Source: Eubacteriales bacterium (GTDB lineage Bacteria > Bacillota > Clostridia > Oscillospirales > Acutalibacteraceae). From it: DNA of 64,000 nucleotides. Where the stretch lies: contig JAQXWS010000027.1 of assembly GCA_029225565.1 (NCBI GenBank), forward strand, positions 7,585-71,584, in the 5' to 3' direction. The translations under genes were made by a program, and so were the position numbers. Position 1 is the stretch's first letter. Every line of letters starts with the position of its first letter. The notes under the pieces are model-generated. The model did no database searches and was not told the DNA's origin. It was given only the letters and a program-made list of their open reading frames with translations. Shown here piece after piece: positions 534-4,790 of this stretch.

Positions 534-2462
534 ATGGATAAAAGTAGATTTTCGTACCCTGTTCCCCAAAAGAATATTCGTATTACAGACCGGTTTTGGA
601 GCGAGAGGCTGGAGGTGGTAAGGCGTAATGTCATACCCTATCAGTATCAAGCTCTCCACGATAATATTCCCGGCGCAGAAAAGAGCTACGCTATAGAGAA
701 TTTTAAAAAGGCTGTTGCCGTGTTGCGGGACAGAGCTTTGGGCAAATCCGTGCCTGTTTATCCCACCGACAAGTGGTATTACGGACAGGACGCACCTGAG
801 GGCGCTTTTCATGGTTGGGTGTTCCAGGATAGTGATGTGTACAAATGGCTGGAAGCTGTGGCATATTCCTTAATTAATCATTATGACCCCCAATTGTTTG
901 CCCAGGCAAGCGAGGTGATTGACCTTGTATGCTCTGCCCAGATGGATAACGGTTATCTGGATACTTTGTATATTATCAATGACCCATCCCAGGTGTTTAC
1001 CAATCTTCGCGATTTTCACGAGCTGTATTGTTTTGGACATTTGACCGAGGCCGCTGTTGCTTTTTTTGAGGCAACACAGGACCGCAGATTGCTGGATTCA
1101 GCTGTCAGATTTGCAGATTTATTATGCCGGGTGTTTGGAGATAACGGAAAAAAGGGATACCCCGGTCACGAGATAGCCGAGCTTGCTTTAGTCAAGCTAT
1201 ATGGCGTTACCGGAGCAAAAAAATATCTTGACCTGGCAGAGTTTTTTATTTGTCAGCGCGGAACAAAGCCCTACTACTATGATACCGAGCATAATACAAA
1301 AACTGACGGCGAGGGCTACCGTTACAACCAGGCACATTGTCAGCCCCGCCATCAGTATGAGGCTGTGGGACATGCTGTCAGAGGCGTTTATCTTTATTCC
1401 GGTATGGCGGATGTGGCAAGGCTGTGTGACGATGATGGTCTGTATTCTGCCTGCCGTCGTATTTGGGACAATATCTGTAACAGAAAACTATATATTACCG
1501 GAGGTATCGGCGCCACCGCAGACGGCGAGGCATTTTCTTACGACTATGATTTGCCAAATGACCTTGCATACAGTGAGACCTGCGCCTCCATTGGCCTTTC
1601 GATGTTTGCTTGCAGAATGGCTTGTATCAGCCCCGAGTCCAAGTATGGCGATGTTATGGAAAGGGCACTGTATAACACAATTCTGGCATCTATGAGCAGT
1701 GAGGGCACGGAATTCTTTTATGTTAATCCGTTGGAGGTTTTGCCCATCGCTTCTCACTGCGACAGCAGAAAAAGGCATGTAAAACCGGTACGCCAAAAAT
1801 GGTTTGGCTGTGCTTGCTGTCCTCCTAATTTGGCACGGTTTTTGACATCCTTGGGAACATATTGTTTTAGCTGCAGCGAGAATACTTTGTATATTCATCA
1901 GTATGTTGGCGCAGAGATAGATACGGATTTTGGCAATGTGAACATTGACTCAACTTATGCTTCCGATGGCAAAGTGTCCGTCACATTTTCTGCAAGCAGG
2001 CCATGTGAGTTAGCCTTGCGTATTCCCGGTTGGTGCAGAGATTTTTGCATTGATGTTCCATATACCGTTAGAGACGGCTATGCCTATGTTGCCGTAGATG
2101 GTGATATGACTATCAGCATGGATTTTGGTATCAGACCCAGATTGGTTGCCTGCTCCGGCAAGGTGCGTGCCAATGTAGGCAAGGCGGCAGTAGCATACGG
2201 ACCGATGATTTATTGTGCCGAGAGTGTGGATAACGGCGAGGATTTGCATTTGCTGTCCCTGGATGCAACTGCTGATTTGCGATACTGCGACGGTAGGATT
2301 ATCGCCAAGGGCTTTCGCACCGAGCCTCGGGAGGATTTGTATTATGACTATATTCCTTGCGACACTGTGCCGGTGGACATTACCATGATTCCGTATTACA
2401 CATGGGGCAATCGGGGCGAGAACGAAATGACAGTCTATATTTCTGTGGCAAAAAAACTTTAA
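534..2462 (+). CDS. Glycoside hydrolase family 127 (beta-L-arabinofuranosidase-like)
   Basis: Motifs FQDSDVYKWLEA, HELYCFGH, GHEIAELAL, VGHAVR, YSETCASIG and CACCPPN. GGAG SD lies 6 nt before ATG 534; the ORF track starts at 522. Confidence 0.9.
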   Translation: MDKSRFSYPVPQKNIRITDRFWSERLEVVRRNVIPYQYQALHDNIPGAEKSYAIENFKKAVAVLRDRALGKSVPVYPTDKWYYGQDAPEGAFHGWVFQDSDVYKWLEAVAYSLINHYDPQLFAQASEVIDLVCSAQMDNGYLDTLYIINDPSQVFTNLRDFHELYCFGHLTEAAVAFFEATQDRRLLDSAVRFADLLCRVFGDNGKKGYPGHEIAELALVKLYGVTGAKKYLDLAEFFICQRGTKPYYYDTEHNTKTDGEGYRYNQAHCQPRHQYEAVGHAVRGVYLYSGMADVARLCDDDGLYSACRRIWDNICNRKLYITGGIGATADGEAFSYDYDLPNDLAYSETCASIGLSMFACRMACISPESKYGDVMERALYNTILASMSSEGTEFFYVNPLEVLPIASHCDSRKRHVKPVRQKWFGCACCPPNLARFLTSLGTYCFSCSENTLYIHQYVGAEIDTDFGNVNIDSTYASDGKVSVTFSASRPCELALRIPGWCRDFCIDVPYTVRDGYAYVAVDGDMTISMDFGIRPRLVACSGKVRANVGKAAVAYGPMIYCAESVDNGEDLHLLSLDATADLRYCDGRIIAKGFRTEPREDLYYDYIPCDTVPVDITMIPYYTWGNRGENEMTVYISVAKKL

Positions 2463-2480
2463 AATTTTTCAAAAAATGTG

Positions 2481-2509
2481 TTGACACCTATCTAACAATC
2501 TGTTATTAT
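2481..2509 (+). promoter_or_regulatory. Sigma-A promoter of tRNA-Asn
   Basis: TTGACA (2481-2486), 17-nt spacer, TGn-TATTAT (2504-2509). Confidence 0.8.
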
Positions 2510-2537
2510 ATATAAGCACTTGATATGAGTGACACAT

Positions 2538-2613
2538 TCCTCTTTAGCTCAGTCGGTAGAGCACTCGGCTGTTAACCGAGTTGTCGTTGGTTCAAGTCCA
2601 ACAAGGGGAGCCA
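2538..2613 (+). tRNA. tRNA-Asn (GTT)
   Basis: 76 nt. Acceptor TCCTCTT/AAGGGGA, D arm TAGCTCAGTCGGTAGAGC, anticodon arm CTCGG-CTGTTAA-CCGAG, T loop GGTTCAAGTCC, encoded CCA. Confidence 0.97.
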
Positions 2614-2619
2614 AAAAAT

Positions 2620-2651
2620 AAAGCATCTGCAATAGCAGGTGCTTTATTTTT
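2620..2651 (+). terminator. Intrinsic terminator of tRNA-Asn
   Basis: AAAGCATCTGC-aata-GCAGGTGCTTT followed by a T-rich tract. Confidence 0.75.
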
Positions 2652-2653
2652 AT

Positions 2654-2857
2654 CCAATCCGAAGGATTGGTATGTAATCACGCTTCAGCGTGTATGTAAT
2701 CGCCGAAGGCGTATGGCATCACCTTAGCGTATGCAATCCTTCGTATTGATTACATTCATAATTTCATTATGATTACATACGCAATTAAAGTTGCGATTAC
2801 ATTCCGTCTGAAGACGGATTACATACAAGGCTTTGCCTTGATTGGCTTCGCTTGATT
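2654..2857. repeat. Composite branched palindrome: 4 forward and 4 reverse 8-nt linkers separated by variable hairpins
   Basis: Forward linkers at 2671, 2693, 2712 and 2730; reverse linkers at 2749, 2772, 2796 and 2818; hairpins sit between them (see findings). Confidence 0.9.
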
Positions 2858-2880
2858 TGAATTTTTGTTTCTGTTATACT
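2852..2880 (+). promoter_or_regulatory. Sigma-A promoter of the four-helix-bundle gene
   Basis: TTGATT (2852-2857), 17-nt spacer, TGn-TATACT (2875-2880), then GAGGTG SD and ATG 2899. Confidence 0.65.
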
Positions 2881-2898
2881 GTTTCAAGAGGTGAGAAT

Positions 2899-3255
2899 AT
2901 GAAAGAAAACCCTTTGATGAAATATTCGGAACAGTTGGCGGTTGAAATTGAGAAGATGTGCAAGTCTTTAGATAATAAAAAAGACAATGCGAATACAATT
3001 TTGCAAATTCGTAAATCTTCATCAAGTGTATTTGCTAACATTTCAGAAGCACAATATCCTCAAAGTTTACCTGATATGCTTTCTAAATTCAAAATTGCAA
3101 GAAAAGAATGTGTAGAAACTGAAGGTTGGTTAAAGCTATTACATTCTTCTGATGTAATTGATGAAGAAACTTTTAAAAAATACAGAAATATTTGTGGGAG
3201 AATACAAAGAATTTTGACTTCTTCCTGCATAACAATTGAAAGAAAAATCAAATAA
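2899..3255 (+). CDS. Four-helix-bundle protein (23S rRNA IVS protein / TIGR02436-like, Avd-related fold)
   Basis: 118 aa with QIRKSSSSVFANISEA...S..D...KFKIARKECVETEGWL, matching the family pattern Q..RS..S...NI.E...F..KL.IA..E..ET..WL. AT-rich relative to its neighbours. Confidence 0.88.
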   Translation: MKENPLMKYSEQLAVEIEKMCKSLDNKKDNANTILQIRKSSSSVFANISEAQYPQSLPDMLSKFKIARKECVETEGWLKLLHSSDVIDEETFKKYRNICGRIQRILTSSCITIERKIK

Positions 3256-3294
3256 TATGTAGTTTGATTTTCGTTACATAAACACATATTGGAT

Positions 3295-3340
3295 AAATCC
3301 GAACTTCACGTTTTTAGGCGATGGGTTCGGATTTTCTTTT
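3295..3340 (+). terminator. Terminator-like hairpin after the four-helix-bundle gene
   Basis: AAATCCGAAC (3295-3304) pairs with GTTCGGATTT (3325-3334), followed by a T tract. Confidence 0.55.
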
Positions 3341-3494
3341 TTACAAAATCAATATGTGCAATTACTTAACCTTAACATTCATTTTTTGATGCCTAATATT
3401 TATATTTGTGCTATAATGATATAAGAAAATCTTTGACAGAAAACTTAGGGAATATATTCTTTTACTGCTCTATAATGTGAGTGAGGTGAACGGA

Positions 3495-4790
3495 ATGGAT
3501 ATTTTGGAAGAACTGAACCGGGTTTCTATGTATATCGAGGAGCATATAACCGAGGATATAAGCATAGACGAGCTTGCAAAAATCACTTTGCAAAGCAGTG
3601 ACAGCTTTTCAAGATTATTTGGCTATATGGCAGGTATGACAATCAACGAATATATCAGGCGCCGCAAGCTGTCCCTTGCTGTTGACGATTTGCAAGACAG
3701 CGACAGCAAAATTATCGACATTGCTATGAAATACGGTTGGAACAGCTCGGATGCTTTCGCAAAGGCCTTTGTGAATCAGCACGGGATAACACCGACAAAT
3801 GCAAGAAAGAAAATTGGCTCTGTCAAAATATATCCGCCTGTTGCCTTTGATTTGAATATTAGAGGAGCAAAGGAAATGAATTTTAAGATTGTCGATGTAA
3901 GCAGCTTTGATGTGTTGGGATTGTCAAAGCGTTTTGACTGCCAAGCAGGTAATCGATTTAAGCAGGAGAATATTATGTGGTCGGTTGATGCCGAACATTA
4001 TCCCGAAAAAATATGCAATGGATATGACGGCGTTTGGTATGGAATTTTTGACAACGGCTCTTATTCTATTGCAAGGAATCAACAGGATGTTGATTCTCAT
4101 AATCTTGAGAGAATCACCGTACCTGCCGGCAAATACGCTGTGTTCACAACACAAAAGGGCGGCTACGCAGGAACAGAATTGCCCCGCCTGCACGAATTGA
4201 TTTTTAATTCATGGCTGCCCGAAACAAATTATAAAATAAAGAGTGAGTATATCGTTGAAGTTTATCATTTGGCAACGAATAAAGCAGAACGCAGAAAAAA
4301 CAGGTATTACGAAATGTGGATACCTATCGACGACAGCGAGACCGAGATTATTGATAAGCAAAAGCTGATTATTCGTACAGCAAATGCTGACGATGCGGAT
4401 GATATTTGCAGAATTTGCTGTGACGATTTGGGTTATAATTGCACAAGTGCTTTGATAGAACAACGACTGACAGAGCGAGACCTTGGCAGGGAACAGGTGT
4501 TTGTTGCAGAATATGATAACAGTGTGGTGGGCTTTGTTCATGTCGAAGATTATAAAACTCTGTATTTTGAGGAACTGGCAAATCTGCTTGGCTTAACTGT
4601 TTCAAAAAAATACAGACGGCAGGGCATTGCAACTGCGTTGATAAAGCAAGCCGAGTATTGGGCAAAGGAAAAGGGGATAAATATGATTAGACTGAACTCC
4701 GGCTCTGCAAGAAAGGAAGCCCATAGGTTCTATCGAAGCCTCGGCTTCGACAACGAAAAAGAGCAAATCAGATTTATGAAAAAGCTATAA
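3495..4790 (+). CDS. AraC-family regulator with GyrI-like effector domain fused to a C-terminal GNAT acetyltransferase
   Basis: N-terminal AraC HTH (YIRRRKLSLA, IAMKYGW.S.DAF.KAF), middle GyrI-like region (VPAGKYAVF), C-terminal GNAT (VSKKYRRQGIATALI, AHRFYRSLGF). GAGGTG SD before ATG 3495. Confidence 0.85.
   Translation: MDILEELNRVSMYIEEHITEDISIDELAKITLQSSDSFSRLFGYMAGMTINEYIRRRKLSLAVDDLQDSDSKIIDIAMKYGWNSSDAFAKAFVNQHGITPTNARKKIGSVKIYPPVAFDLNIRGAKEMNFKIVDVSSFDVLGLSKRFDCQAGNRFKQENIMWSVDAEHYPEKICNGYDGVWYGIFDNGSYSIARNQQDVDSHNLERITVPAGKYAVFTTQKGGYAGTELPRLHELIFNSWLPETNYKIKSEYIVEVYHLATNKAERRKNRYYEMWIPIDDSETEIIDKQKLIIRTANADDADDICRICCDDLGYNCTSALIEQRLTERDLGREQVFVAEYDNSVVGFVHVEDYKTLYFEELANLLGLTVSKKYRRQGIATALIKQAEYWAKEKGINMIRLNSGSARKEAHRFYRSLGFDNEKEQIRFMKKL

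Follow-up and report, generated by a model that had tools for sequence, protein, structure and literature searches.

What kind of element separates a tRNA-Asn gene from its terminator in the genome of an Eubacteriales bacterium (Acutalibacteraceae; GCA_029225565.1, hereafter G000, estimated to be 91% complete)? The question arose in a window of 64,000 nt, which is the whole stretch of DNA that was analysed (contig JAQXWS010000027.1, 7,585–71,584, forward strand), and positions in this window serve as coordinates. Between 2538 and 3340, the tRNA-Asn gene is followed by a composite palindrome made of short repeated units (the array), a promoter, and a gene for a four-helix-bundle protein (4HB) of the PF05635/TIGR02436 family. 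A preliminary description had given this layout, and all of its parts were recovered by ARAGORN and Rfam, repeat, promoter, and profile scans. Comparison with related genomes and metagenomes showed that array and gene lie on an inserted cassette, and that the array belongs to a large repeat family docked behind tRNA genes. For the whole system, an even chance is given here to the reading that the array is a docking site acting at the DNA level, with the 4HB as its cognate partner and an enzyme supplied in trans.

A cassette inserted behind tRNA-Asn

The promoter-tRNA block (2451–2616) was conserved in genomes of the same genus, and the comparison of the site with relatives was based solely on the block of promoter, tRNA, and terminator. 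In one same-genus locus (L013, from genome G027), tRNA-Asn was joined directly to the homologue of 3292–3341, with nothing between them. In another (L006, from G033; 552–1500), a different cassette of 950 bp was found between the same two points as in the window. It contained its own terminator, promoter, and open reading frame (ORF; MNDNKVFLTE...), and its terminus, ...AATAAACACA followed by TATTGG, was as in the window. By eye, this ORF resembled a Sel1/TPR-type repeat protein. In the third locus (L007, from G001), tRNA-Asn and the terminator homologue were separated by an insert of ~150 bp and, after it, 19 nt copied from the 3′ end of the tRNA. The preliminary description had suggested a comparison with empty tRNA-Asn sites, and it yielded one empty site (L013) and one differently filled site (L006) in the genus. 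These empty and alternatively filled sites showed, at the level of sequence comparison, that 2614–3284 is an insertion exactly behind the CCA of tRNA-Asn and before its native terminator. The right junction reads ...ACATAAACACA up to the insertion point and TATTGG beyond it, and no copy of the tRNA-Asn 3′ end was present there.

In the pig-gut metagenome X3, the depth of the cassette was 15x and that of the flanks 95–99x; in metagenome X2, the corresponding depths were 14x and 27x. The empty site, the alternative filling, and this drop in depth bear out the earlier proposal of a non-autonomous unit of ~0.7 kb, array plus gene, at a tRNA 3′ end. The major allele in X3 (~72–100x) was another filling of the site, which begins AAAAAATCCGTTCACGA.AGTGGACGGAATTTTT and returns to the window sequence at 3259. 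In metagenome X4, 83 different letters replaced 2756–2850 in a variant of the array. The piece at 3259–3284 was common to the L006 cassette (from 3269) and the X3 major allele (from 3259), and it resembled the ...TTTTGAG...ACA/CCA ends that precede other arrays; it may be part of either the cassette or the site.

The GC contents were 28–36% in the cassette and 28–31% in the 4HB ORF, compared with ~46% in the flanks. Genes for 4HB proteins with 72–81% identity were scattered over other families, and 35 of the 36 same-genus genomes had none. Both the low GC content and this scattered distribution, mostly missing within the genus, fit a horizontal arrival of the cassette.

The 4HB gene is transcribed, from ~2885 to 3341. 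Metatranscriptome contigs over the window copy covered 2885–3046, 2917–3098, and 3134–3341; the first of them begins just after the promoter, and one stops at 3341, where the native terminator ends. The preliminary description had assigned the gene a downstream hairpin of its own, and the comparison with L013 indicated that this hairpin is most likely the displaced native terminator of the tRNA. The 118-aa product scored 73.7 bits against PF05635 (cut-off 33.8, residues 6–107) and 76.8 bits against TIGR02436 (cut-off 24), which is above the cut-offs of both family profiles. The protein is related to the solved structure PDB 2RLD (E 6e-13), an entry of five chains. An inverted unit-core pair within the ORF (ATTACAT-N7-ATGTAAT, 3138–3158) had a locally non-random look; it was rejected as a family feature, as it was absent from 27 homologous genes, and is probably a chance occurrence.

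A repeat family docked behind stable-RNA genes

The array is 205 bp in total and comprises four GTATGTAATC-type units and then four units of the complementary GATTACATAC type, each with a mini-hairpin. The linkers are constant (10 nt), and the spacers between them are short and self-complementary, forming mini-hairpins that vary. The units were strongly clustered: seven of the 12 one-mismatch matches in the 64-kb window fell in the 157 bp occupied by these units, and 0 of 100 shuffles reached 12.

The search pattern GTATGTAATC-N6-20-GTATGTAATC matched at least 120 stretches in a collection of one-genome-per-species contigs, nearly all of them from Acutalibacteraceae, Oscillospiraceae, or 'Clostridia' gut metagenome-assembled genomes. 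In a second sample of 401 genomes spread evenly over the order, 30 genomes carried the pattern, and the reversed pattern, used as a control, gave zero matches in every genome. The retrieved loci contained 140 arrays. Orientation relied on the asymmetric end hairpin, which was present in 78 of them, and these were oriented like the window. The order of parts was stereotyped. The 3′ end of a stable RNA (...CCA) was followed by an A-run, a terminator hairpin, a T-run, and ATCCAATCC-GAA-GGATTG; next came three to five GTATGTAATC units with hairpins, the centre, three to four GATTACATAC units with hairpins, AAGGCTTCGCCTT, and TTGATT. According to the preliminary description, the last bases of the array, TTGATT, are the −35 box of the 4HB promoter, and this arrangement proved to be conserved: 34 of 74 copies had TTGATT-17-TATA(A/C)T beginning 11 nt past the last unit, where shuffles would give 4.7. 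About half of the array copies had no promoter.

The terminator at 2614–2651 is part of the repeat and not of the tRNA, because an identical sequence lies behind tRNA-Asn in the window and behind tRNA-Gln in another species (L019). A tRNA called by ARAGORN ended 46–59 nt before the first unit in 39 of the 78 oriented copies, with twelve amino-acid identities represented, and this distance means that the terminator starts right after the CCA. A random intergenic position is estimated to fall this near behind a tRNA ~0.1% of the time. One further copy was found behind a tmRNA and one behind the 3′ end of a 5S rRNA (L057, ~330–400), and some left flanks were a loosely conserved piece ending ...ACA/...CCA that resembled the end of a preceding cassette. 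In loci L024, L109, and L124, the array stood behind a tRNA 3′ half only (T-arm, acceptor strand, and CCA), and no full tRNA was called.

The complete 1.8-Mb genome G040 contained ~11 copies behind at least seven tRNAs (Gly, Arg, Asn, Leu, Gln, Cys, and Tyr). They had one near-identical terminator type and spacers specific to the genome. Tandem units restarted after ...GGTTGCACA (...GCACA), and the original tRNA terminator was displaced behind the insert. Chimeric arrays were also observed in G040, in which the right arm of the GTATGTAATC type ran straight into an array of GTGATAT/ATATCAC units (L141, ~1000–1150; L142, ~880–1050 and 2940–3100). Across many genomes, the cassettes were complete and stereotyped, with sizes of ~0.2–0.7 kb.

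Comparison of these copies showed that the module of terminator and array in the window belongs, as a single copy, to a large repeat family that is found in gut Oscillospirales and multiplies within genomes. As judged from its flanks, the family docks behind the CCA of many tRNAs, behind tmRNA, behind copies of tRNA 3′ ends, or behind the ...CA end of a preceding cassette. The preliminary description had considered that the palindrome might occur independently of 4HB genes and of tRNAs. It was partly independent of 4HB genes, with ~70% of copies solo; it was not independent of tRNAs, to which the link was very strong.

The features of the window locus are listed in Table 1. The left flanking gene (522–2462) encodes a GH127 beta-L-arabinofuranosidase, and the right one (3477–4790) encodes a three-part fusion of an AraC helix-turn-helix, a GyrI-like effector domain, and a GNAT acetyltransferase. 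Neither the cassette nor the flanking ORFs included an integrase, a transposase, or a reverse transcriptase (RT) by ORF list and Pfam, in agreement with the preliminary description.

Table 1. Features of the tRNA-Asn locus and its inserted cassette (window positions).
Feature	Position	Strand	Evidence or remark
tRNA-Asn promoter, TTGACA, 17-nt spacer, TATTAT	2481..2509	+	11/12 consensus positions, promoter scan
tRNA-Asn (GTT), CCA encoded	2538..2613	+	ARAGORN and Rfam, 69.8 bits
Inserted cassette, 671 bp, between CCA of tRNA and its native terminator	2614..3284	+	same-genus comparison
Cassette-borne bidirectional terminator: A-run, hairpin with 17-bp arms, T-run	2614..2651	.	inverted-repeat and fold analysis
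End hairpin CCAATCC-GAA-GGATTGG, asymmetric marker of left end of array	2654..2670	.	present in 78/140 arrays of other genomes
Left arm, units spaced by mini-hairpins: GTATGTAATC (2670, 2692), GTATGGCATC (2711), GTATGCAATC (2729)	2670..2738	+	
Centre CAATCCTTCGTATTG, end hairpin inverted	2734..2748	.	93% complementary to 2655-2669
Right arm, units spaced by mini-hairpins: GATTACATTC (2748, 2795), GATTACATAC (2771, 2817)	2748..2826	+	
Last hairpin AAGGC-TTT-GCCTT, then truncated units GATTGG...TTGATT	2827..2857	+	conserved right end AAGGCTTCGCCTTGATTT
Outward promoter: -35 TTGATT (2852-2857), 17-nt spacer, TG (2872-2873), -10 TATACT (2875-2880)	2852..2880	+	promoter scan
Ribosome-binding site GAGGTG of 4HB gene	2889-2894	+	
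4HB gene, 118 aa, pI 9.1	2899..3255	+	profile matches, RNA contigs
Cassette 3′ end piece GTAGTTTGATTTTCGTTACATAAACACA, terminal CA	3259..3284	+	common to other fillings of the site
Native terminator of tRNA-Asn (hairpin 3295-3334 and T-run), now serving the 4HB gene	3295..3340	+	comparison with L013 and L007

Array folding, Gut-1, and the putative 4HB partner

The array folds strongly in every form. Compared with shuffles, the fold as RNA had a z of −7.2, and the folds as single-stranded DNA (ssDNA) were equally good (−7.25 and −7.58 for the two strands). The preliminary description had read the palindrome as a ladder of junctions. Its composite palindromic nature and strong folding were confirmed, but the minimum-energy fold lacked four-way junctions: both outer unit pairs, spacers included, were zipped into a single long imperfect stem. 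In the fold models, the four-way junction ladder is one of several near-equal folds.

The 173 distinct spacer hairpins contained 830 pairs, of which 797 (96%) were Watson–Crick, 12 G-T, 12 A-C, and 9 other. The lack of a G-U excess over A-C speaks against a structure selected in one RNA strand. According to the preliminary description, the 4HB may bind or chaperone the structured RNA or ssDNA; of these two forms, the pairing statistics argue against a single-strand RNA. Triloops of the left arm had the form C-GNA-G, a very stable type of DNA mini-hairpin, and those of the right arm its mirror, C-TNC-G. The unit spacing varied from 19 to 27 nt, which weakened the candidate explanation that the units are helically phased iterons in double-stranded DNA, and extruded hairpins fit better. 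The array is placed after a terminator and before a promoter, and none of the metatranscriptome contigs of the window copy covered 2720–2789, though contigs do not prove the absence of RNA. An antisense non-coding RNA (ncRNA) with a minus-strand promoter was considered and rejected, since the conserved box TATAGCAT is the reverse complement of the −10 of the plus strand.

The array has a relative among named motifs. The Gut-1 motif (RF01706) was found in human-gut sequences and rated a likely ncRNA on covariation (Weinberg et al., 2010, PMC2864571). A search of window positions 2000–4000 against Rfam at E ≤ 1 returned no Gut-1, only the tRNA and a chance match to a small RNA (sRNA). The window array stays below the Gut-1 gathering score of 50 bits and follows the Gut-1 grammar of a constant short linker and variable mini-hairpins. 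In L045, L048, and L056, arrays built of other units passed at 50.8–74 bits, and the Gut-1-matched arrays of the retrieved loci had the linker words GTGAAG, ATGAAATA, and GTGATAT, with the same grammar and the same context of tRNA-CCA, terminator, array, and promoter ccgcttttatgctataat. In contrast, the linker word of the window is GTATGTAATC, and its element is two-armed whereas the Gut-1 model covers one arm only. One array elsewhere in G000 (unit GATGAAATC) gave Gut-1 scores of 41.6 and 38.1 bits, the left arm on the plus strand and the right arm on the minus strand. Because the arms match on opposite strands, Gut-1 models one arm of a two-armed, mirror-symmetric element, and the window array is a new sequence subfamily of an architecture half-modelled as Gut-1. 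No description of a tRNA, cassette, or 4HB context of Gut-1 was found in the searchable literature. Taken together, the absence of G-U bias, the mirrored loops, the equal folding of both strands, the opposite-strand Gut-1 matches, and the placement between terminator and promoter favour an action of the array as a DNA-level site (foldable ssDNA or cruciform) and not as one-strand RNA.

The 4HB gene accounted for 15 of the 52 ORFs downstream of arrays (29%). All 25 close 4HB homologues in the retrieved loci had an array upstream; orthologous genes without the palindrome, which the preliminary description had named as evidence against its proposal, were not encountered among them. More distant PF05635 genes (L024, L124, and L130) were accompanied by other short-repeat arrays in inverted arrangement. 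On the 4HB tree, three changes of array unit type sufficed, fewer than in any of 200 shuffles (mean 9.4). The mean number of pattern matches per genome was 7.1 with a close 4HB and 3.4 without one, in a sample that is small and phylogenetically clumped.

A unit-agnostic array finder applied to the whole of G000 gave three real arrays, with the units GTATGTAATC, GTATATCATC, and GATGAAATC, and each of them directly preceded one of the three PF05635 genes of the genome. The second cassette (C13:1–372 joined to C34:42937–43232; loci L134 and L135) follows the tRNA cluster Val-Asp-Phe-Gly-Cys and comprises a terminator, a GTATATCATC/GATGATATAC array, a promoter, and a 4HB gene 64% identical to that of the window. 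This gene was split over two contig ends and had an in-frame TAG at codon 11 (MSKNYLLIYS*QLAT...), which could reflect a pseudogene or an assembly error. The third PF05635 gene (38% identity) lies behind the Gut-1-like GATGAAATC array (C34:22400–24400; L136), and that array follows a tRNA-like 3′ end (...ccgccggcacca) not called by ARAGORN. The block in L136 was bracketed by direct repeats of ~45 nt (401–447 and 1181–1228).

These patterns suggest that the 4HB protein may recognise the linker words of its own array, to which we give a probability of even or slightly below. The earlier idea of palindrome and gene as a two-part element is supported from the side of the gene, as close 4HBs all have an array, but not from the side of the array, as ~70% of the arrays are solo. 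No description of the 4HB link or of the tRNA docking of arrays was found in the searchable literature.

Mechanism, rival explanations, and known systems

In the reading held here at even chance, the array would serve in cis as the site of a non-autonomous docking element and would work as foldable ssDNA or as a cruciform. The 4HB would be its cognate partner and would read the repeated linker words. Binding of the 4HB may control the promoter that lies partly within the array, may assemble the array for copying, or both, and the strand-transfer enzyme would be supplied in trans.

A number of observations weigh against this reading. No insertion enzyme was found by the searches for RT, Y1 transposase, and integron integrase or by the scans of downstream ORFs. 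The relatives with an empty or alternatively filled site share no flanking protein genes (GH127, AraC) with the window. A joint of 2611 to 3285 was present in two metagenome runs, with sides of only 23–26 nt; it is not counted as proof of an empty site, as it could be a junction of the G001 type, with the 19-nt copy of the tRNA end before TATTGG. In the 401-genome sample, 11 of the 30 array-bearing genomes had no 4HB at E ≤ 1e-25, and outside G000 most arrays were solo. Genome G040 had ~11 arrays and a second array type (unit ATATCAC) with one PF05635 gene only, and in G038, which had five GTATGTAATC arrays, the best 4HB (61% identity) was linked to a different unit type. The co-variation of gene and array is expected from linkage alone. 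Faint array-containing contigs of other copies were present in metatranscriptomes, and arrays may therefore be transcribed.

The search for a mobilising enzyme covered several candidates. A Pfam scan of 21 downstream ORFs found no recombinase; the non-4HB ORFs were diverse and included GNAT, metallo-beta-lactamase fold, ferredoxin, esterases, and small membrane proteins. RVT_1 had no match in the whole of G000, within the completeness given above. An RT was rejected as a general partner, because it was found in five of eight carrier genomes and was absent from G000, G272, and G371. A 313-aa RT in G040 (C3:107500–114000; L146) adjoined a 427-aa ORF without a Pfam match; this pair was retron-like and unlinked to arrays. 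The Y1/HUH transposase (PF01797) was absent from five of the eight carriers (G000, G040, G149, G371, and G287), and the integron integrase profile TIGR02249 gave at most 74 bits in the eight genomes, against a cut-off of 265. The plasmid collection contained no match to the cassette. A phage vehicle is unlikely, since only one of 12 pattern matches in viral contigs (L148) was a true array, the others being simple tandem repeats or isolated chance matches. In four of these viral contigs (L153, L154, L158, and L159), GTATGTAATC or its complement occurred within simple tandem repeats with a period of 15–20 nt, which lacked both hairpins and a second arm and were unrelated to the array family. As for the features of a miniature inverted-repeat transposable element (MITE), the junctions shared only CA, no transposase was found in the 21 downstream ORFs or the flanks, and no pair of arrays enclosing a gene was seen.

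Four other explanations were weighed against this evidence. The array could be a selfish miniature repeat (MITE-, BOX-, or REP-like) that targets tRNA ends alone, with the 4HB a passenger behind a portable promoter. The solo state of most copies, the 11 of 30 array genomes without a close 4HB, the high diversity of the other downstream genes, and the second array type of G040 without a second 4HB would all agree with it. We nevertheless regard it as unlikely, since the 4HB makes up 29% of downstream ORFs while a genome has one to few such genes, every close 4HB has an array, the three arrays and three genes of G000 correspond with three different unit words, and the distant PF05635 genes in L024, L124, and L130 carry other inverted short-repeat arrays. 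In addition, the ORF in the Coxiella S23p intervening sequence (IVS), which also belongs to PF05635, is preceded by heptamer repeats, with 3–4 copies of GACAGAT just upstream of the ORF in variable number (PMC4990558). An ordinary chromosomal operator array with the 4HB as autoregulator, or a barrier between tRNA and promoter, spread by conservation and recombination in tRNA flanks, would account for the −35 inside the last unit, the fixed promoter offset in 46% of copies, and the constant place of the array between terminator and promoter. It is quite unlikely in view of the presence, absence, and alternative fillings at the same tRNA-Asn point, the copies behind at least twelve tRNA identities with the terminator co-repeated, the tandem units and chimeric array in G040, and the many copies, about half, that have no promoter.

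The covariation that led Weinberg et al. (2010, PMC2864571) to class Gut-1 as a likely RNA, the very stable fold, the many compensatory variants in the hairpin stems, and the low-depth array-containing contigs in metatranscriptomes would be in line with a structured Gut-1-type sRNA, transcribed either by read-through of the tRNA or from a promoter of its own, with the 4HB as RNA-binding partner. Against such an sRNA stand the 12 G-U and 12 A-C pairs in 830, the loops mirror-imaged between the arms, the Gut-1 matches of the arms on opposite strands, the equal folding of the strands, the strong terminator before the array with the only promoter after it, and the RNA contigs of the window copy, which begin at 2885 and leave 2720–2789 uncovered, subject to the limit of contigs noted above. 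It is accordingly given only a slight probability.

The 3′ ends of tRNA genes are classical integrase targets, and the cassette might be what remains of a tRNA-integrating island or prophage after decay and loss of the tyrosine integrase. This origin would be consistent with a different small insert in G001 that lies between direct repeats of 19 nt from the tRNA-Asn 3′ end and with the 18–19-nt tRNA end repeats that bracket another small element in G000. It is the explanation to which we give hardly any weight: the right junction of the cassette has no tRNA-Asn 3′ copy, the cassette itself has no integrase, it recurs complete and stereotyped in many genomes, and true arrays were nearly missing from viral contigs and plasmids (one of 12 viral matches, no plasmid match). 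The small element just mentioned is a different one of ~150–170 nt, which lies behind tRNA terminators and consists of CTCCAAAT-hairpin-ATTTGGGAG and then a GTCCGGTGGAC-type hairpin, with no Rfam match. It was located in G000 at C38 ~101340 (minus strand), C52 ~1056 (plus strand, tandem), and C69 ~2934 (plus strand), and in G001 at L007, and it was bracketed by 18–19-nt repeats of tRNA 3′ ends (tRNA-Thr and tRNA-Met; tRNA-Asn in G001). The tRNA ends in this genus thus carry miniature inserts of at least two families.

The element was also compared with known systems. The 23S rRNA IVS of Leptospira and Coxiella likewise combine a PF05635 protein, a stable-RNA gene, inverted repeats, and short repeats upstream of the ORF, and in both cases mobility is suspected and its mechanism not known. 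In contrast, the window element lies behind tRNA-Asn and a terminator and not inside a 23S rRNA helix, from which IVS are excised by RNase III, and its two arms are both upstream of the ORF (2670–2826) whereas the IVS arms bracket it; a weak relic, TATGTA..TACATA, was seen downstream of the 4HB stop codon. The window gene also has its own promoter, ribosome-binding site, and separate expression, and the array also exists without an ORF. REP/REPIN-RAYT, BOX, and Correia elements are similarly multi-copy, intergenic, hairpin-forming, modular, and genome-specific, with outward promoters in some copies, and the single repeat-flanked partner gene per genome of REP/RAYT recalls G040 with its ~11 arrays and one 4HB. 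The arrays differ in that no Y1/HUH transposase occurs in five of eight carriers and the window partner is a 118-aa helical bundle without a known catalytic motif, in that docking takes place exactly at the 3′ end of stable-RNA genes, and in that hairpins vary and linkers are constant, the reverse of REP.

Integron attC cassettes resemble the present ones as small promoter or gene cassettes that follow one another head to tail at one fixed place in the chromosome, with palindromic separators conserved in structure and not in sequence, plausibly as folded ssDNA. The differences are the lack of an integron integrase and of an attI/Pc platform, the many docking points (any tRNA), and the position of the array on the 5′ side of the cassette, where it carries a promoter. 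Avd, the accessory protein of diversity-generating retroelements (DGRs), binds nucleic acid and a reverse transcriptase. It shares the fold family and the basic charge of the 4HB, but the window gene has no adjoining RT, none is present in G000, and there are no template or variable repeats. The four-helix family that includes Avd is mentioned in PMC10053308. Gut-1 is the closest named thing, and IVS, REP/RAYT, and integron cassettes are the closest biological analogues, each failing at least one defining feature.

The window offers a clonable pair of array (2652–2858) and gene (2899–3255), and the second pair of G000, whose linker word differs, is a natural specificity control. In this way, two orphans become testable together: Gut-1, since 2010 described as 'human gut, likely RNA', and PF05635/TIGR02436. 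The latter is, to our knowledge, a very large family known from rRNA IVS and DGR Avd and otherwise without function. It may be speculated, though we find it doubtful, that 4HB and linker-hairpin arrays form a class of recombinase-less mobile cassettes that would recognise the 3′ CCA ends of stable-RNA genes (tRNA, tmRNA, and copies of tRNA ends) and their own ...CA ends, with a 4HB oligomer that would read the linker words of the folded DNA array and recruit a host insertion enzyme. Recognition of their own ...CA ends would explain the tandem stacking. If true, such a class would bring Gut-1, the ORF-bearing rRNA IVS, and the large orphan 4HB family under a single mechanism. The docking rule itself, behind CCA, at many tRNAs, and with no recombinase encoded in the cassette, would, if it holds, point to an undescribed recognition of the ends of stable-RNA genes, and the array family would then provide, on a wide scale, portable terminators and promoters that reshape the expression of accessory genes in gut Clostridia.

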